From a virus (taxonomy: Duplodnaviria; Heunggongvirae; Uroviricota; Caudoviricetes), in the IMG/VR virus record IMGVR_UViG_3300045988_128742: DNA of 33,825 nt, one strand, 5' to 3'. The notes under the pieces were generated by a model, which saw nothing but the letters and a program-made list of their open reading frames with translations, made no database searches and was not told the DNA's origin. This document shows positions 102 to 25,695 of the stretch, one piece after another. Each line of letters starts with the position of its first letter. Positions within the stretch are counted from its first letter, which is position 1. Both the position numbers and the translations under genes were made by a program.

Positions 102-1265
102 TTACACATCATTAGTACCTTCCTTATTTTTTGACTGGGACAAATTTGGGACCGATGGGTTCAGGATCGAGTCTATTTGCCGTGCGTGTTCGGTAAGGTG
201 ATTAGGTGCAAGGTGAGCATATCGACGAACCATTTCGATAGACTCCCAGCCTCCCATTTCCTGTAACACTGACAACGGGACTCCGGCTTGAACCAGCCAA
301 CTTGCCCAGGTGTGTCTCAAGTCGTGAAATCTGAAATCATCAATACCTGCTCGTCTCAGCGCCGCTTTCCAGGCTGTGTTTGCGTCATACCGCATCTTCC
401 TGACCGTTGGCGCTTTCGTTCCGTCTGGTTTGGTACAGCTTTCCTTGTACACAAATACCCAACGGTGATGATTCCCGATTTGTTTTTTCAATACGCGACA
501 TGCAGTATCATTCAGCGCAACGCCAATTGCGCGGTTTGATTTACTCTCTTCCGGGTTTATCCATGCCACCCGGCGCTGCATATCTATTTGTTGCCATTCA
601 AGGTTGATGATGTTCGAGCGTCTTAAGCCTGTTGCCAGTGCAAATTCAACAACAGACTTTAATGGCTCCGGACATTCATCAATCAGCCTTTGTGCTTCAT
701 GGGGCTCCAGCCAGCGGATCCGTTTATTCTTTGGTTGAGGCACTTTAATAATTGGTGCCTTATCCAGCATTTTCCATTCACGCTCTGCGGCTCTTAGTAG
801 GGCCTTTATAAATGAAAGATGCGTAGCCTTCGTTGCAACGGACGCTGGTTTTGGCGTGTATTCTGGAACAGGTTTCCCTTTTTTTCTGCATGCTTCTGCC
901 CTGAGTTTCCAGTTTTCCTCATGACGCCGGTTCGTCATTTTCTGCATTGCTGAATAAATTTTTGATTCAGTAATGTCTCTTAGTTGCATTCCTGCGAAAT
1001 GTTGAAGCCAGAATCCGATCCGGCTTTTGTCATCGTCCAGTGATTTTTTATGTGCTTTCTCTTCAAGCCACCTGACACACGCTTCCTCGAACGTTATATC
1101 AGGTATTTCACCAAGTTTGCTGACCCGCCATGCTTCAGCCTTTAGCTTGTCATGGAGTTCTGTCGCCTGCCTTTTGTCCTTTGTTCCAAGAGACTGTTTA
1201 AATCTTTTACCGTTCGGCAATGTGAAACTGGCGTACCATATTTCACCTCTGCGGAAGAGTGACAT
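102..1265 (-). CDS. int: Tyrosine site-specific integrase, P22-type
   Basis: 387-aa ORF ending 15 bp from the tRNA 3' end. C-terminal catalytic motifs HDLRHTWAS and VRRYAHL; N-terminus [14 protein letters not shown] matches the P22 Int family as I recall it. ATG at 1265 with GAGGAAAG Shine-Dalgarno (SD) upstream. Confidence 0.95.
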
Positions 1266-1797: not shown

Positions 1798-2153
1798 TAT
1801 GCTCCAGCCTCCGGTGCTTTTGGCATTATTGCCCAGTGAGTGATATTGACGTTTTCAAGGTCCCCGACCTGAAATGTCCACTGCCATTCTCCGGTTTCTT
1901 TTTGTCCCCAGGTGTACCAGAGAGAACGCCAGCCAATTAGCCAGCCTTCTCCGTTAGCATCGAATAACAAAACACTTTCATTTGCTGGTGGCAGTTCAGC
2001 TGACACTGGTATTACTTTGTTTTCCTGTGCTGCACATTTAGCTTCAAGCGCATCGAATTTACGCACCAGGTATTCAGCATCTGTTTCATTTACTTTCAGA
2101 TCTCGCGGTACACATCTCCCACGAAGAAACCCTTCCATTTCGAAAACATTCAT
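1797..2153 (-). CDS. Hypothetical early protein (Trp-rich C-terminus)
   Basis: ORF in the leftward operon; the second ATG (2153) overlaps the HD-gene stop as ATGA, suggesting coupling. Confidence 0.55.
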   Translation of the reverse strand: MNVFEMEGFLRGRCVPRDLKVNETDAEYLVRKFDALEAKCAAQENKVIPVSAELPPANESVLLFDANGEGWLIGWRSLWYTWGQKETGEWQWTFQVGDLENVNITHWAIMPKAPEAGA

Positions 2154-2686
2154 GCGCATTTGCGTAACTCCGATAACTCGTTAAAACGTTCCATAAACAT
2201 CCCGTAGGCATGGCCCGGTGCCTGTGGAATCACTTTGAACATCTCTGTTGCCGGGATACCTTCCAGTACAGGCCAGAAAGAGCCATCATCAAGCCCGAGA
2301 TCGCGGCGTTCGGTTGCCAGCATAATGAGATCGGCATATTTCACTGGCGTGCTCATAACAGGAGGTAACCCGTATTTCTCACGTATTACGGCGTCTATTT
2401 TTTCTTCCATCCGTTTATAGTCAGGAAGAAGTCGTTTCAGTGGTGCGGGGATGTCCTGGCAATATGCTTCTGTTGCATCATGCATTAAAGCTTCAAAAGC
2501 AAATTCCTGTGGCACCAGCTGGCTGCAAAGCACCGCATGTTGGGCGACACTGTAGAAGTGTGAAAGATGTCCTGCAAAGCGACAGATATTTGAAAGGGAA
2601 ACCGCGATATCGTTAATAACGATGTCGTCTTTATTTATCCTGTCATAATAAAAATGCTTCCCGGAAAAAGTTTTAATAAATGACAT
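2150..2686 (-). CDS. HD-domain phosphohydrolase (YfbR-like 5'-deoxynucleotidase family)
   Basis: Translation contains the H...HD metal-binding signature (FAGHLSHF ... ALMHDATEAY). Start assigned to ATG at 2686 (MSFIKTF) with GGAG SD; the track ORF begins at an upstream GTG (2713). Confidence 0.75.
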   Translation of the reverse strand: MSFIKTFSGKHFYYDRINKDDIVINDIAVSLSNICRFAGHLSHFYSVAQHAVLCSQLVPQEFAFEALMHDATEAYCQDIPAPLKRLLPDYKRMEEKIDAVIREKYGLPPVMSTPVKYADLIMLATERRDLGLDDGSFWPVLEGIPATEMFKVIPQAPGHAYGMFMERFNELSELRKCA

Positions 2687-2741
2687 TTTGTTCTCCACGT
2701 ATATGCGCTGCACCGCGCTGAATTCGGGTAAAAGGAAGCCC

Positions 2742-3190
2742 TCACCGTCCGGCGATTATTGAGTCAATTACATTTCCATAAATGCCCCCGTAGGGGCGGT
2801 TAGTTTCTCCACAAAACAGAGAAGAACACCTGCGGTGGCAGCCGCCCGGATGGATTGGGTTATGAGCCCGTCGTCCGGTGATGCTCTTCTCTGTTTTGTA
2901 AAAAGGACGGTACCAGCCGGAAGCAAGGGTACAAGCTGGTACCGCCAAGACTACACACAGCATAAAGTTGTGGTGCCGGGTGCCTCCCGGTGCCTGGCGA
3001 AGGTTGCACACCAGGCGGGTGGGTATCCACAGAAGGTCGACTGTCAGCCTCAACCTTAACCCGCGTGCGCTGAGCCGCATTCACCACAACGCTAAGGATT
3101 CTCTCTGGTTGAAAATACTTAGCTGTTATGTGCCTGTCTTTTCACCACTTCAGGCTCGGTGGTATCCTTTTAAGCCCGTATACATAAAAG
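2742..3190. other. GC-rich, ORF-poor structured region (candidate ncRNA or cis-acting RNA element)
   Basis: No protein-like ORF in any frame. Perfect 15-bp inverted repeat ACAAAACAGAGAAGA (2811-2825) / TCTTCTCTGTTTTGT (2885-2899) around a 59-nt GC-rich spacer; second 9-bp inverted repeat GGTACCAGC (2909-2917) / GCTGGTACC (2935-2943); hairpin GCCCC-CGTA-GGGGC at 2784-2797. Confidence 0.4.
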
Positions 3191-3199
3191 GAAAATCAA

Positions 3200-3445
3200 A
3201 TGACTTTTGATGAAAAAGAACTTGATAATGCAATTAATAAAATCATCGTAACGTCGCTCTTTTCCTGTCTCAGCGACACTCAGCAAAAACAGTTCTACGA
3301 ATCGGCTTTCAACATGATCGAGCGTTGTTGTTTCTGCGATGCCGACGAGTTACCTGAAAAAATCAGGAAACAGTTGGCTGATGCTCTTCGAGTGCGACTT
3401 TCTGACCAATTTTCTGAAATGTACTCTCCGAATTTGGACAAATAG
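3200..3445 (+). CDS. Hypothetical protein (81 aa), AT-rich
   Basis: ORF with AAGGA SD 9 nt upstream of ATG; opposite orientation to the surrounding leftward operon; its 3' end overlaps the convergent ORF 3363-3638. Confidence 0.4.
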   Translation: MTFDEKELDNAINKIIVTSLFSCLSDTQQKQFYESAFNMIERCCFCDADELPEKIRKQLADALRVRLSDQFSEMYSPNLDK

Positions 3446-3638
3446 AAAAAGGCCATTTCCATTCAGGGTCTGATGGAAATACTTCAGCCTGTTCCAAAGC
3501 ACGGCGTAAAGAGAACACAACTCCAGCCATAATCTGATGTTTCCCATTGGTCCAGCTATCGCCGCTCTGATCTACAGGGGCGGCTATGTCGTATGACCAA
3601 ACGACTTCACAGTTATTGTTTAAAATCTGGACTTTCAT
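3363..3638 (-). CDS. Hypothetical protein, first ORF downstream of the predicted PL promoter
   Basis: Track ORF 3363-3680; start assigned to the internal ATG (MKVQILNNN) preceded by AGGTG SD. No arginine-rich N-like motif. Confidence 0.45.
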   Translation of the reverse strand: MKVQILNNNCEVVWSYDIAAPVDQSGDSWTNGKHQIMAGVVFSLRRALEQAEVFPSDPEWKWPFSICPNSESTFQKIGQKVALEEHQPTVS

Positions 3639-10357: not shown

Positions 10358-10374
10358 TTTTGTGGAGAAAGTTG

Positions 10375-10752
10375 ATGCGTGATATTCAAATGGTTCTGGA
10401 TCGTTGGGGAGCATGGGCGGCGAGTGATAGTTCAGGAGTAGACTATTCTCCTATAGCTGCTGGGTTTAAAGGGCTTCTTCCCTATACAAGCAAAACACGT
10501 CAGGCATGTTCAGATAGTGATGCATTAATTATTGAAGGTTGTCTTGCTCGTCTAAGGCAAAAAAGGCCGGACGAACATTCGCTTCTTGTTGCCCATTACC
10601 TATACGGTATCTCTAAAAGAAAGCTCGCCAAGGCTCGTAAAAAGGATGAGAAACTAATACGCATTGAGATACAGATGGCTGAGGGGTTTATTGATGGCTG
10701 CCTATCGATGCTGGAAATTAGTCTAGAGATGGACCCCGAAATTAAAGATTGA
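10375..10752 (+). CDS. Q: Late-gene antiterminator Q (phage 21-type, Phage_antitermQ family)
   Basis: N-terminus MRDIQMVLDRWGAWAA and C-terminal AEGFIDGCL motif match the Q21-type antiterminator family as recalled. ATG at 10375 with GGAGA SD; the track ORF starts at an upstream TTG. Confidence 0.8.
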   Translation: MRDIQMVLDRWGAWAASDSSGVDYSPIAAGFKGLLPYTSKTRQACSDSDALIIEGCLARLRQKRPDEHSLLVAHYLYGISKRKLAKARKKDEKLIRIEIQMAEGFIDGCLSMLEISLEMDPEIKD

Positions 10753-10759
10753 TTATTGA

Positions 10760-10783
10760 AGCCCGATTACTCGGGCTTTTGTT
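10760..10783 (+). terminator. Intrinsic terminator just downstream of Q
   Basis: Stem AGCCCG / CGGGCT with 6-nt loop followed by TTTGTT on the plus strand; the opposite-strand gene's stop codon lies in the loop. Confidence 0.6.
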
Positions 10784-11436
10784 CCACATCTCGAACATAG
10801 AGAATTACTGCTGACTTAATGTCACCATCGACGTGTTTTGCGTTAATGCTCAAATGTACAGGCTTTCTTTCCCACTCAGCTCGCTGCAATGCTTCTTTGT
10901 TTCCGGATTCATCAAGGAAAACATCCTGAACTACGCAGGTTAGACGTTGGTCGGTATCTACGCGTCGGACCTTAACTTTGAAACTCTCTGGGTCAGTATT
11001 ATTGACTTCTTCAATTCGGTAAATACCATCAATCCTCATTTCTGATGAACGTCTACGAGCATTCGTAACCAACTCTTTCGCCATTTCAGAATCAATAGTA
11101 ACGCCATCAATTTGAGCGTTATCTGAACGCACAAAGGATTTGACCATTTGGGTTTTAGCGTCATACGACATACGGTCCATGTTATCGAGAAGTGGTTTTT
11201 CCGCAATCATTTCTGAAATAACCCGCAGGCGTTTAGTTTCTTGCTCGCTCATGATCTGCATAGTCCGGAGATGTTCTTTCTCTCCATCCTTAGCAATTTC
11301 TGCAAGGCGAATATCTTTACGGTTGTCCAAGAACCGTTTAAATACTGTTACTCCGCCCCAGATGACTGCTGCGCCGAGAACAGTAAACATGATCTCAGTT
11401 GCGTTCATTTTACCAACAAGTTCCTGTGTGAGTTTG

Positions 11437-11445
11437 GTTAAAAAG
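11437..11445. repeat. Target-site duplication (left copy), GTTAAAAAG
   Basis: 9-bp direct repeat identical to 12497-12505, immediately flanking the IS inverted repeats. Confidence 0.85.
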
Positions 11446-12496
11446 GGCGTTGTTGCTCAAATCAGGGAACTATCCCGCAGTTTGGTGATCTGATCTCTTA
11501 GGTTCACCACCGGGAGCGCCAGATGGGCAAGTCCAAGCACAAGATCAGCAACTGGAAACAGTACAACCAAGCCTTGGTGCAACGTGGTTCGTTGACCGTC
11601 TGGATGGATGAGCAAGCCATCCAGCAGTGGCATTGCCAGACCCATCATGGCCGCCGAGGGCGAGGCTTCCATTACAGCGACTCCGCCATTGAAACCGCGC
11701 TGATGCTCAAGGCGGTATTCAAGCTACCGCTGCGTGCCTTGGAAGGCTTCATCAACTCGCTGTTCCAGCTGATGAATGTGCCCTTACAGTCGCCGGACTA
11801 CAGCTGTATCAGCAAGCGCGCCAAGACGGTCGAAATCAAGTACCGCCTACCGAGCCATGGCCCAGTAGCTCACCTGGTCATCGATGCCACCGGACTCAAG
11901 GTCTATGGCGAGGGCGAATGGAAAATTCGCAAGCACGGCAAGGAGAAACGCCGCGTCTGGCGCAAGCTTCACCTGGCCGTAGATGCGGCGACCCATGCCA
12001 TCGTCGCAGCCGAAGTCAGCCTGGAAACGGTGGGCGATAACGAGGTGCTGCCCACGCTGCTCAACCCCTTGCGCCGCAAGATAGAACAAGTCAGCGCCGA
12101 TGGTGCCTATGACACCAAAGCCTGTTATGCCCTACTACAAAAGAAGGGCGCCAAGGCCACCATACCGCCGAGAAAAAATGCGGCATTCTGGAAGACAGGC
12201 CATCCACGCAACGAGGCGGTTGCCGCGCTCAAGGCAGGAGAGCTGGAGCAATGGAAAAAGGACTCTGGCTATCATCAGCGCTCGATAGCTGAGACCGCCA
12301 TGTATCGCTTCAAGCAGCTCATCGGTCCGAAACTGAGTCTGCGGAGCTACAACGCCCAGGTGGGTGAGATCCTGGCTGGGGTAAAAGTCATGAACAAGGT
12401 CATAGGGCTTGGTATGCCCATTCGGCAGGCCGTCAACTAAGCCCGCCCGGCGGGTTGGGGAGCGAGTATCCGACTTTGGATTTGATCAACAAGGCC
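11446..12496 (+). mobile_element. IS903-group (IS5 family) insertion sequence, 1051 bp
   Basis: 18-bp terminal inverted repeats GGCGTTGTTGCTCAAATC (11446-11463) and GGCCTTGTTGATCAAATC (reverse complement of 12479-12496) flank one transposase gene, with a perfect 9-bp target duplication. Confidence 0.9.
11523..12440 (+). CDS. IS903-family transposase
   Basis: 305 aa; N-terminus MGKSKHKISNWKQYNQALVQRGSLT and core GEGEWK.RKHGKE.RR.WRKLHLAVD match IS903/IS102 transposase from memory. Confidence 0.9.
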   Translation: MGKSKHKISNWKQYNQALVQRGSLTVWMDEQAIQQWHCQTHHGRRGRGFHYSDSAIETALMLKAVFKLPLRALEGFINSLFQLMNVPLQSPDYSCISKRAKTVEIKYRLPSHGPVAHLVIDATGLKVYGEGEWKIRKHGKEKRRVWRKLHLAVDAATHAIVAAEVSLETVGDNEVLPTLLNPLRRKIEQVSADGAYDTKACYALLQKKGAKATIPPRKNAAFWKTGHPRNEAVAALKAGELEQWKKDSGYHQRSIAETAMYRFKQLIGPKLSLRSYNAQVGEILAGVKVMNKVIGLGMPIRQAVN

Positions 12497-12505
12497 GTTA
12501 AAAAG
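12497..12505. repeat. Target-site duplication (right copy), GTTAAAAAG
   Basis: Identical to 11437-11445. Confidence 0.85.
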
Positions 12506-13020
12506 CCATCAATGTTGATTTCTACTATTGAAGAACCCTGTTCTACCGTAACTTCTATTTCTAGGGCATCAAGTTCTTCTTTGGTCAGTTTGCGGACGTC
12601 AGGGACACCGTACTTGGCAAGGGCATATGATTTGTTGATTTGAGCTTGCATTTCAACAAATCCCTTCATAACTGAAGGTGTTAGCGATCTGTTGAATTTT
12701 TCACCGGTTAATCTGATGGTAAGGTTTGGCCATCCGTTGAAACTTAAACTGTCAGGTAAACCATAACCATCAAGATAGCTTTCAAGCAAATCGAAGGCTT
12801 GCTGCTCAGATTCAATGTCTACATGAATCTCATCAAACTTATCCAAAAATATGTCCTCATTCTAAGCCAACTGTCACCGTGAGGTTTGGCAACGCCTGCT
12901 TTATTTTTCGTTTTAAGCTGTGTGGCAAAAAAATAATGGAAAAACAGATAAAAATCACTAACGCGGTCCGCATTTTCTAGATTACTGTGTTAAGAGTGGT
13001 TACTTCGCCACACAACTTAA

Positions 13021-13044
13021 ACCCGCCGCTGAGCGGTTTTTTTG
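13021..13044 (+). terminator. Intrinsic terminator in the intergenic region upstream of the late genes
   Basis: GC stem (CCGC...GCGG) followed by seven T on the plus strand, directly after a 14-bp long-range inverted repeat (12913-12926 / 13007-13020). Confidence 0.5.
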
Positions 13045-13165
13045 TACCTGTAAACTTGGTGCAGCACAGTAAACACGCTGGTGGTCGTGAATACTGACTT
13101 TTTATCTTGCTGGCTTTTTAGACAAGAGTTATTGGTATGTCATGTTAACCAGAAGGGAAAAAGAC

Positions 13166-13369
13166 ATGCTAAAACAGCAAGATATGACAGAAACCGCCGC
13201 CGCAGTCCTTCATTTCTTACCTGCTGACAAGTGGGTAACGCCACGCATGATGACGAGAACTACCGGAGTAAGCGAAGCCCGGTGCCAGTTAATACTGACT
13301 CAGTTAGTTCTGGCGGGTCTGGCGAAGGATAACGGCGGGTACGGGAATAAATTCAGACGCTGCCAGTAA
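13166..13369 (+). CDS. Small putative winged-helix DNA-binding protein
   Basis: Track ORF 13142-13369; second ATG (13166) has a better SD (AAGGGA). HTH-like segment TPRMMTRTTGVSEARCQLILTQL. Confidence 0.4.
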   Translation: MLKQQDMTETAAAVLHFLPADKWVTPRMMTRTTGVSEARCQLILTQLVLAGLAKDNGGYGNKFRRCQ

Positions 13370-13519
13370 TGGCGGTTTCCTGCTGTGAAAATGGGCGGCT
13401 GGTGGGTGTTGGTAGCACCTGCCAGCCATTCGCTCATGCCTACTGGTCACAAGCGAACCACGGCCCACTGCTTTAGCGCAAAAGCAGAGTGAGCCTACCA
13501 GAGTTACGCTTACTGATCC

Positions 13520-14572
13520 ATGAAAAATACTGTAAAAATAAACAGTGTTGATTTAATCAACGCTGATTGCCTGCATTTTATTCAGTCCCTGCCTGATGAT
13601 TCCATTGACCTGATTGTTACCGATCCGCCTTACTTCAAGGTGAAACCTAACGGTTGGGACAATCAGTGGAAAGGGGACGAAGATTACCTTAAGTGGCTGG
13701 ACCACTGTCTGGCCCAGTTCTGGCGGGTGTTAAAACCTGCCGGAAGCCTTTACCTGTTCTGTGGACATCGCCTGGCATCTGATATTGAGATCATGATGCG
13801 TGAACGTTTCAACGTGCTTAACCATATCATCTGGGCGAAGCCGTCCGGACGTTGGAATGGGTGTAATAAAGAAAGTCTGCGCGCATATTTTCCTGCCACA
13901 GAGCGCGTTCTGTTTGCTGAACATTACCAGGGGCCATATCGCGGCAAAAGTGACGGCTATGCGGCAAAAGAAAGGGAACTCAAACAGCACATAATGGCAC
14001 CGCTGATATCGTATTTCAGGGATGCTCGTGCCGAACTGGGTATAACGGCAAAACAAATTGCCGAAGCCACAGGTAAGAAAAATATGGTTTCCCACTGGTT
14101 TGGTGCCAGTCAGTGGCAGTTGCCGAATGAGGCTGACTATCGGAAGTTACAGGCACTGTTTTCCCGTATAGCGGCAGAGAAGTTTCAGGAACAACAACTG
14201 GAACAACCACACCACCAGCTGGTGGCATCTTATGATTCACTGAATCGCAAATATTCTGAATTGCTGGATGAGTTTAAATCTCTCCGGCGCTATTTCTCCG
14301 TATCAGTCTCCGTGCCTTATACCGATGTCTGGACGCATAAACCCGTTCAGTTCTACCCGGGTAAACATCCGTGCGAGAAACCGGCGGATATGCTCCGGCA
14401 AATAATCAATGCCAGTAGTCGACCTGGTGATCTGGTTGCTGATTTCTTTATGGGATCCGGTTCCACAATAAAAGCAGCAATGGCGCTGGGGCGTCGGGCG
14501 TTAGGTGTTGAACTTGAGTCAGAGCGGTTTAATCAGACGGTGAAAGAGGTAAGTGAACTGGTGGGGAAATAA
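13520..14572 (+). CDS. Beta-class DNA methyltransferase (N6-adenine or N4-cytosine), orphan
   Basis: 350 aa; catalytic DPPY motif near the N-terminus (LIVTDPPYF) and AdoMet-binding FxGxG motif near the C-terminus (DFFMGSGST), i.e. beta-class motif order. No restriction endonuclease candidate adjacent. Confidence 0.8.
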   Translation: MKNTVKINSVDLINADCLHFIQSLPDDSIDLIVTDPPYFKVKPNGWDNQWKGDEDYLKWLDHCLAQFWRVLKPAGSLYLFCGHRLASDIEIMMRERFNVLNHIIWAKPSGRWNGCNKESLRAYFPATERVLFAEHYQGPYRGKSDGYAAKERELKQHIMAPLISYFRDARAELGITAKQIAEATGKKNMVSHWFGASQWQLPNEADYRKLQALFSRIAAEKFQEQQLEQPHHQLVASYDSLNRKYSELLDEFKSLRRYFSVSVSVPYTDVWTHKPVQFYPGKHPCEKPADMLRQIINASSRPGDLVADFFMGSGSTIKAAMALGRRALGVELESERFNQTVKEVSELVGK

Positions 14573-24044: not shown

Positions 24045-24215
24045 ATGTTTGTCAAACCTGTTAAAGGGCGGTCAGTTCCTGACCCTGCCCGCGGCGACCT
24101 TTTGCCCGCCGAAGGGCGAAATGTTGACGAGAACAACTACTGGCTGCGCCGTGAAGTAGCGGGTGATATCCGGCGCGTGAATAAAAAGGTGAACACCGAT
24201 GACGATAAGCTTTAA
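24045..24215 (+). CDS. Small Mu gp38-like protein (DUF2635-like), absent from the ORF track
   Basis: 56-codon ORF (MFVKPVKGRSVPDPARGDLLPAEGRNVDENNYWLRREVAGDIRRVNKKVNTDDDKL) translated by hand; below the track's 60-aa cutoff; overlaps the sheath start by 17 nt. Confidence 0.55.
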   Translation: MFVKPVKGRSVPDPARGDLLPAEGRNVDENNYWLRREVAGDIRRVNKKVNTDDDKL

Positions 24216-25695
24216 CACCATTCCGTCGAATACGCTGGTTCCGCTGTTTTATGCGGAAATGGATAACCAGGCGGCGAATACTGCACAGGACAGCGGAGCA
24301 TCGCTGCTGATTGGTCATGCCAATAACGGTGCAGAGATTGTTGCCAACAGTCTGGTACTGATGCCGTCGGCAGACTATGCACGCCAGATTTGTGGTGCGG
24401 GAAGTCAGCTGGCGCGTATGGTCGAGGCTTATCGCCAGACCGACCCGTTTGGTGAACTGTATGTAATTGCCGTTCCTGAATCCACGGGCGCGGCGGCAAC
24501 GGTTACGCTGACGGTGACCGGGGAGGCAACCGAAACCGGCACGGTGAATGTCTATGTGGGACGTACCCGCGTGCAGGCTCCAGTGACCAACGGCGATAAC
24601 GTCACGACGATTGCCAGCAGTATCCAGGATGCCATCAATGCCGTTCCGGCCATGCCGTTTACGGCTTCATCTTCGGCAGGCGTGGTCACACTGACCGCGC
24701 GTCATAAGGGGCTTTGCGGGAATGAAATTCCTGTCAGCCTCAATTACTACGGCTTTGGTGGGGGCGAAGTGCTGCCAGCGGGCGTACAGATTGCCGTGGC
24801 GACGGGGACCGCCGGAACGGGTGCTCCGGTTCTCACCGGCGCGGTGGCTGCAATGGCGGATGAGCCGTTTGATTATATCGGCCTGCCGTTCAACGACACG
24901 GCCTCCGTTAACACGCTGGTGACCGAGATGAACGATACCAGCGGTCGCTGGAGCTATGCGCGTCAGCTGTATGGTCATGTGTATACGGCAAAGATCGGCA
25001 CGCTGTCAGAACTGGTGACCGCAGGTGACCAGTTTAACCAGCAGCACATTACCCTGGCGGGATACGAAAAAGAGACCCAGACGCCTGCCGACGAGCTGGC
25101 GGCAAGCCGTACCGCCCGCGCAGCAGTGTTTATTCGCAACGATCCGGCACGTCCCACGCAGACCGGTGAGCTGGTGGGTATGCTGCCTGCGCCGAAGGGG
25201 AAACGGTTCACGATGACCGAACAACAGACCCTGCTGTCGCATGGCGTGGCAACGGCGTATGTCGAAAGCGGGGTGCTGCGCATTCAGCGTGATGTCACCA
25301 CGTACAGGAAAAATGCTTACGGTGTTGCGGATAACAGCTACCTCGACAGCGAGACGCTGCATACCAGCGCGTATGTGCTGCGCAAACTGAAATCCGTCAT
25401 TACCAGTAAGTACGGGCGTCACAAGCTTGCCAGCGACGGTACCCGCTTTGGTCCCGGTCAGGCGATTGTCACACCGGCGGTGATCAAAGGGGAACTGCTG
25501 ACAACCTACCGTCAGCTTGAGCGTGCGGGGATCGTGGAAAACTACGAACTGTTTAAGCAGTACCTGGTTGTGGAGCGTGATGCCAGCGATCCGAACCGCC
25601 TGAACACGCTGTTCCCGCCTGACTATGTTAACCAGTTGCGTGTCTTTGCCGTGGTTAACCAGTTCCGTCTTCAGTATTCAGAGGAGTCTGCATAA
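24199..25695 (+). CDS. Contractile tail sheath protein (Mu gpL-like)
   Basis: 498 aa; followed directly by the tube gene. Confidence 0.85.
   Translation: MTISFNTIPSNTLVPLFYAEMDNQAANTAQDSGASLLIGHANNGAEIVANSLVLMPSADYARQICGAGSQLARMVEAYRQTDPFGELYVIAVPESTGAAATVTLTVTGEATETGTVNVYVGRTRVQAPVTNGDNVTTIASSIQDAINAVPAMPFTASSSAGVVTLTARHKGLCGNEIPVSLNYYGFGGGEVLPAGVQIAVATGTAGTGAPVLTGAVAAMADEPFDYIGLPFNDTASVNTLVTEMNDTSGRWSYARQLYGHVYTAKIGTLSELVTAGDQFNQQHITLAGYEKETQTPADELAASRTARAAVFIRNDPARPTQTGELVGMLPAPKGKRFTMTEQQTLLSHGVATAYVESGVLRIQRDVTTYRKNAYGVADNSYLDSETLHTSAYVLRKLKSVITSKYGRHKLASDGTRFGPGQAIVTPAVIKGELLTTYRQLERAGIVENYELFKQYLVVERDASDPNRLNTLFPPDYVNQLRVFAVVNQFRLQYSEESA

Follow-up and report, generated by a model that had tools for sequence, protein, structure and literature searches.

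The closest described relatives of the insertion sequence examined here are IS903 and IS903B. These two are the founding members of the IS903 group. A copy of IS903 carried by a Klebsiella plasmid is 1057 bp long, ends in perfect 18-bp repeats (GGCTTTGTTGAATAAATC) and is flanked by a 9-bp duplication (ACTTTGAAC). The present element is assigned to ISEc35, for which a literature search yielded only resistance-plasmid surveys, where it is described as an IS5-family element. Like IS903 and IS903B, ISEc35 encodes one DDE transposase of about 305-307 aa, with aligned D, D, E and Y-R-E-K residues; its 18-bp repeats likewise start with GGC-TTGTTG and end with AAATC, its insertion is accompanied by a 9-bp duplication, and its length is similar (1051 bp, versus 1057 bp for IS903). 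In contrast, its protein shares only about 54% identity with that of IS903, and its repeats are imperfect (16/18) and depart from those of IS903 at 3 to 4 of the 18 positions. Given this level of protein identity and the differing repeats, the possibility that the element is an isoform of IS903 was rejected and the two were considered distinct IS species.

The DNA analysed, hereafter the window, is a stretch of 33,825 nucleotides corresponding to an SfV-like E. coli prophage, whose integrase gene (102-1265, minus strand) adjoins a tRNA-Thr(CGU) gene (12-87), the only feature found by Rfam and the tRNA scan. The open reading frame in the integrase position is on the reverse strand and encodes 387 aa, and the overall organization as well as the late-region modules resemble those of phage SfV. 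The insertion sequence and its borders consist of the following features:

11437-11445, no strand: left copy of the target-site duplication, GTTAAAAAG, read from the sequence and present as a single copy in the empty site of E. coli ECONIH1
11446-12496, plus strand: complete ISEc35 (IS5 family, IS903 group), 1051 bp
11446-11463, plus strand: left terminal inverted repeat, GGCGTTGTTGCTCAAATC, 14/18 identical to the IS903 repeat GGCTTTGTTGAATAAATC
11523-12440, plus strand: transposase gene, 305 aa, unbroken, with D121, D193 and E257 and with Y250/R253/E257/K264
12479-12496, minus strand: right terminal inverted repeat, reverse complement of GGCCTTGTTGATCAAATC, 16/18 identical to the left repeat
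12497-12505, no strand: right copy of the target-site duplication, GTTAAAAAG, read from the sequence

The duplicated 9 bp are absent from the rest of the window on both strands, and the probability of a 9-bp match occurring by chance at two fixed positions is 4^-9, or about 4e-6. The 1051 bp that separate the two copies constitute the element, which begins with GGCGTTGTTGCTCAAATC and finishes with the reverse complement of GGCCTTGTTGATCAAATC; 16 of the 18 positions agree between these terminal inverted repeats, and there is no further matching beyond them. The 305-aa open reading frame is the sole long one within the element, and the G+C content reaches 57% inside the element versus 47-49% in the flanking 2 kb. 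Re-inspection thus reproduced, at the same positions, the perfect 9-bp duplication and the 1051-bp element with imperfect 18-bp terminal inverted repeats described by an initial annotation made from the sequence alone; the 305-aa transposase that it reported was also recovered, and its length equals that of WP_072657383.1, the transposase of the 100%-identical copies described below.

Comparison with profile databases placed the transposase well above the cut-offs of NCBIfam NF033579 (IS5 family; 384.1 bits, cut-off 140), Pfam PF13737 (DDE_Tnp_1_5; 128.5 bits, cut-off 28.1) and Pfam PF01609 (DDE_Tnp_1; 107.6 bits, cut-off 23). The protein shares 53-54% identity with the products of loci annotated as IS903 or IS903B over residues 1-299, i.e. 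98% of its length (E about 1e-98). In a pairwise alignment, D121, D193 and E257 are opposite D121, D193 and E259 of IS903, and Y250, R253, E257 and K264 are opposite Y252, R255, E259 and K266, which reproduces the Y-(2)-R-(3)-E-(6)-K signature; in IS903, the aligned residues are catalytic. The two ends of the element match the IS903 repeat GGCTTTGTTGAATAAATC at 14 and 15 of 18 positions. Transposase homology, repeats and a 9-bp duplication like those of IS903 therefore identify, at the sequence level, a complete member of the IS903 group, as had been claimed from the letters alone, and more precisely ISEc35. This name is taken from the annotation of identical copies: annotated copies with 100% identity over all 1051 bp are present in 20 complete E. 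coli genomes and on a Leclercia plasmid, and their transposase is labelled by PGAP as 'IS5-like element ISEc35 family transposase' (WP_072657383.1, 305 aa). Among the identified matches of a megablast search with the element, none was to a copy labelled IS903; a further band of matches was at 80-90% identity. ISEc35 is already catalogued, the present element shows no difference from its annotated copies, and only the site of insertion is particular to the present allele.

Additional copies of ISEc35 provided a control of the boundaries. Two identical copies, one in a fimbrial gene of E. coli MIN6 and the other on the Leclercia plasmid, are inserted at unrelated sites, terminate at the same bases as the copy in the window and are flanked by 9-bp duplications of their own (GTTGTTACC and CGAGCCCGA). 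Independent copies with the same ends and differing duplications support the boundaries and, indirectly, the activity of the element, which is probably active; a further indirect sign is the number of matching places per E. coli genome, which reaches 16. A different situation was observed in E. coli H2, HUE1 and 19-5, whose 100%-identical copies have a common right junction beside a gene encoding a DUF262-domain protein and differing left flanks (IS903B in two cases and an ABC-transporter gene in one). Since these three copies have no target duplication they look rearranged, which suggests an older resident copy affected by IS-mediated rearrangement.

To reconstruct the site prior to insertion, the element and one copy of GTTAAAAAG were removed from positions 10400-13500 of the window, leaving 2041 bp. 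This rebuilt sequence was found exactly, with a single GTTAAAAAG, in the genome of E. coli ECONIH1, and at least 25 further complete genomes match it at 100.0%; the empty site that the initial annotation had suggested looking for in related strains does exist. In ECONIH1 the target is an intact minus-strand gene of 1020 bp encoding a 339-aa 'hypothetical protein' (WP_000357056.1), hereafter the cargo gene, and the duplicated 9 bp correspond to its nucleotides 342-350, i.e. codons 114-117. In the window this gene is divided as follows:

10767-11445, minus strand: 3' part of the cargo gene, from codon 114 to the stop, containing a 213-aa open reading frame that starts at Met127 (11408)
12497-12846, minus strand: 5' part of the cargo gene, codons 1-117 of 339, TTG start at 12846, defined from the list of open reading frames and WP_000357056.1 of ECONIH1
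12433-12846, minus strand: chimeric 137-aa open reading frame made of 117 host codons and 20 codons from the right end of the IS, an exact marker of the occupied allele

The full-length 339-aa protein can no longer be made, and the claim that the insertion had inactivated an accessory gene is therefore correct, the gene being split at codons 114-117. We considered whether the 213-aa C-terminal open reading frame could be driven from the left end of the IS; inspection by eye revealed no convincing outward-reading promoter there, and this idea was dropped.

Within PHROGs, the interrupted gene matches only phrog_6191, a family of unknown function; the Pfam search gave only a sub-threshold match, and searches of NCBIfam and PADLOC returned nothing. 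We found 101 homologues, all named 'hypothetical' and about 335 aa long, in Enterobacterales, Pseudomonas, Acinetobacter and Burkholderiales. The AlphaFold model of the cargo protein (mean pLDDT 82.7) comprises four parts: an N-terminal alpha/beta domain (residues 1-125), a hydrophobic helix (about 129-150), long helices extending to about residue 220, and a C-terminal beta-barrel. In E. coli PD7 (NZ_CP074047.1), the same 339-aa gene is interrupted by IS1B, leaving a 280-aa C-terminal open reading frame; compared with the ISEc35 insertion, this one involves another IS family and another position in the gene and is an independent event. The 90% protein cluster of the cargo gene also holds truncated versions of 274, 190 and 164 aa. 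The IS1 interruption and these truncated forms would fit either relaxed selection on the cargo gene or selection for its loss.

The position of the cargo gene between the antiterminator gene Q and the late genes raised the question of whether the insertion affects late expression. The relevant features are:

10372-10752, plus strand: antiterminator Q gene (Pfam Phage_antitermQ), directly upstream of the cargo slot
10759-10784, plus strand: hairpin and T-run just past the Q stop, overlapping the stop codon of the cargo gene; putative terminator
12945-13021, plus strand: segment shared by phage cdtI only, whose Q is of the same type; predicted late promoter and Q-loading region
13022-13044, plus strand: terminator-like hairpin and T-run, at the left edge of the late module common to SfV, Ayreon, mEp460 and Stx2c phages

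The Q protein of the window is a distant relative of the Q of phage 21, whose structure is solved, and the Q gene of the window is followed by the lysis and contractile-tail genes, the latter including a 498-aa open reading frame at 24199-25695. Phage cdtI possesses the same type of Q, with 94% nucleotide identity, but a different hairpin right after it; the homology between cdtI and the window ends at the Q stop codon and picks up again at about 12945, some 75 bp before the hairpin at 13022-13044. The intervening slot of cdtI (1867-3460) contains two unrelated reverse-strand genes, orf53 and orf54, whereas that of the window contains one, the 339-aa gene. In contrast, SfV, Ayreon, mEp460 and the Stx2c phages, which have other Q types, are homologous to the window only from the hairpin at about 13022-13044; in SfV the same hairpin is located 107 bp past Q. 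On this comparison, the region from about 10753 to 12945, between the Q stop and the late-promoter segment, is a cargo slot prone to swapping. The homology breaks with cdtI on one side and with the phages of other Q types on the other place, as we infer, a Q-specific late promoter and Q-loading segment beyond the right side of the cargo gene, at about 12945-13021. Its position was deduced from these module boundaries because a scan of the plus strand for the sigma-70 consensus between 12850 and 13020 found no site. The IS is thus probably flanked by Q and the late promoter and would not belong to the late transcript; in that case, since Q acts on RNA polymerase at the late promoter, late expression would not be expected to be disturbed. 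The extra kilobase that the initial annotation had noted between Q and the late genes is physically real, but an effect on late expression is unlikely according to the module comparison with cdtI, SfV and Ayreon.

We then assessed how widespread the empty and occupied alleles are. A 200-bp probe spanning the empty-site junction, used at a threshold of at least 99% identity, detected the empty site in 86 of 5426 complete E. coli genomes, while none of the 5426 displayed the occupied arrangement. A 34-mer crossing the left junction was likewise absent from the GTDB species representatives, the JGI metagenome contigs and IMG/VR. The occupied allele was detected only through exact look-up of the chimeric 137-aa open reading frame, which can arise only from the present insertion: it is encoded by 26 contigs, compared with 30 for the 213-aa fragment and at least 1000 for the exact intact protein. 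The sources of the occupied allele include E. coli drafts at NCBI (MCA7635178.1/MCA7635176.1 and ELL9071010.1), a scaffold from the metagenome of a human gut (QINJ12-1, SAMN00791934), a metagenome from wastewater (ERR2607567, PRJEB27054) and a number of Logan assemblies under DRR and SRR accessions. The 213-aa fragment was also listed with a JGI/IMG source, although the 34-mer scan of the JGI contigs was negative; evidently, the scanned contigs and the records behind the look-up do not have the same coverage.

Both junctions were present in nine of ten occupied loci that were fetched, at the same position and in the same orientation in all nine. Three of the fetched loci show 100% identity with the window across 2.7-6.4 kb; among the others, nearly all differences fall within the IS, with 0-4 outside it. 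In five metagenome contigs the IS departs from that of the window at 8-12 positions between 11766 and 12431, combining a small, recurrent set of variant positions in mosaic fashion. These differences are probably due to the collapse of co-occurring ISEc35 variants during short-read assembly, and gene conversion or separate insertions of different variants may also be their source. The contig from ERR2607567 (1-3378) includes the right junction of the window and the IS followed by a different left flank, which points either to a chimeric join through the repeat or to an IS-mediated rearrangement between two ISEc35 copies.

We consider it highly probable (about 0.9) that a single transposition brought a complete, probably active ISEc35 into a 339-aa gene, at its codons 114-117, in the slot between Q and the late-promoter region of an SfV-like prophage. 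The DDE transposase would have cut the target with a 9-bp stagger, whose repair would have duplicated GTTAAAAAG; the insertion would leave an N-terminal fragment fused to 20 residues of the IS and a C-terminal open reading frame without promoter and, most likely being outside the late transcript, would not affect the lysis and morphogenesis genes. The simplest reading of the sequences is one insertion event, inherited in one E. coli or prophage lineage that makes up a small minority of the carriers of this prophage. Repeated independent insertion of ISEc35 into the same 9 bp and in the same orientation would explain the different ISEc35 variants inside identical junctions on some occupied contigs, and IS1 has also hit this gene in E. 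coli PD7. However, a hot spot is hard to reconcile with an identical position and orientation in all nine loci that have both junctions, with flanks carrying 0-4 differences and with other ISEc35 copies lodged in unrelated target sequences; moreover, mosaics of few variant positions are what repeat collapse yields. We hold recurrent insertion to be very unlikely.

Even less probable is a private event, i.e. a de novo insertion in the sampled cell line that would be unique to the present genome. The perfect duplication, the 100% identity of the IS to other copies and the lack of an occupied site in the 5426 complete E. coli genomes, the GTDB representatives, the JGI contigs and IMG/VR are what such an event would produce, but the exact chimeric open reading frame occurs on 26 contigs, including the E. 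coli draft MCA7635178.1 and human gut and wastewater records, and these records carry both junctions with virtually identical flanks. The same recurrence in independent assemblies, obtained with different assemblers and in different studies, makes an assembly artefact the least credible of these explanations: insertion sequences are a classic source of mis-joins, as the discordant left flank of the ERR2607567 wastewater contig recalls, but an IS copy wrongly joined into a prophage contig would not yield a 9-bp duplication that collapses to the exact empty site.

The insertion is thus a young, low-frequency allele inherited in a lineage and not a private one. It is considered young because neither the IS nor the flanks have any substitution, and inherited because several studies yielded assemblies, albeit a minority, with the same allele. 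The description of the transposition as recent, given in the initial annotation, stands insofar as no differences exist in the IS or the flanks, and has to be amended insofar as about 26-30 other contigs share its junctions. These junctions are not fixed across many unrelated genomes, a situation that would have spoken against the initial annotation: the allele is shared, yet far from fixed. Some 3 kb without substitutions do not resolve the age any further than 'young', and a stretch of this length with no change would, at the clock rates usually quoted for E. coli, fit an age of up to centuries or more.

As such, the finding is an ordinary one: the IS is catalogued, insertion polymorphisms in prophage accessory genes are routine, and the case has little import beyond annotation. 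The allele could nevertheless mark the lineage of one E. coli or prophage clone present in gut and wastewater samples. The insertion also marks a widely conserved, uncharacterised cargo gene of the phrog_6191 family as dispensable for prophage carriage, and this gene, located in a swap-prone slot, may deserve study more than the IS itself. A more far-reaching scenario, which we find unlikely, is that the prophage may still be inducible and ferry ISEc35 between E. coli hosts, with a burst of transposition coupled to induction. The transposase gene is co-oriented with Q and starts about 770 bp downstream of it, so that antiterminated early transcription could enter the IS at induction. In an equally unlikely alternative, the loss of the cargo gene is what is selected, as may be proposed because IS1 has independently inserted into the same gene.

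The window contains a further gene between the predicted late promoter and the holin gene, at 13520-14572. It encodes a 350-aa N6/N4 DNA methyltransferase that scores 506 bits against the PADLOC model of type II methyltransferases, and no restriction partner is present nearby. SfV, cdtI and Ayreon have the same methyltransferase gene at the same position.
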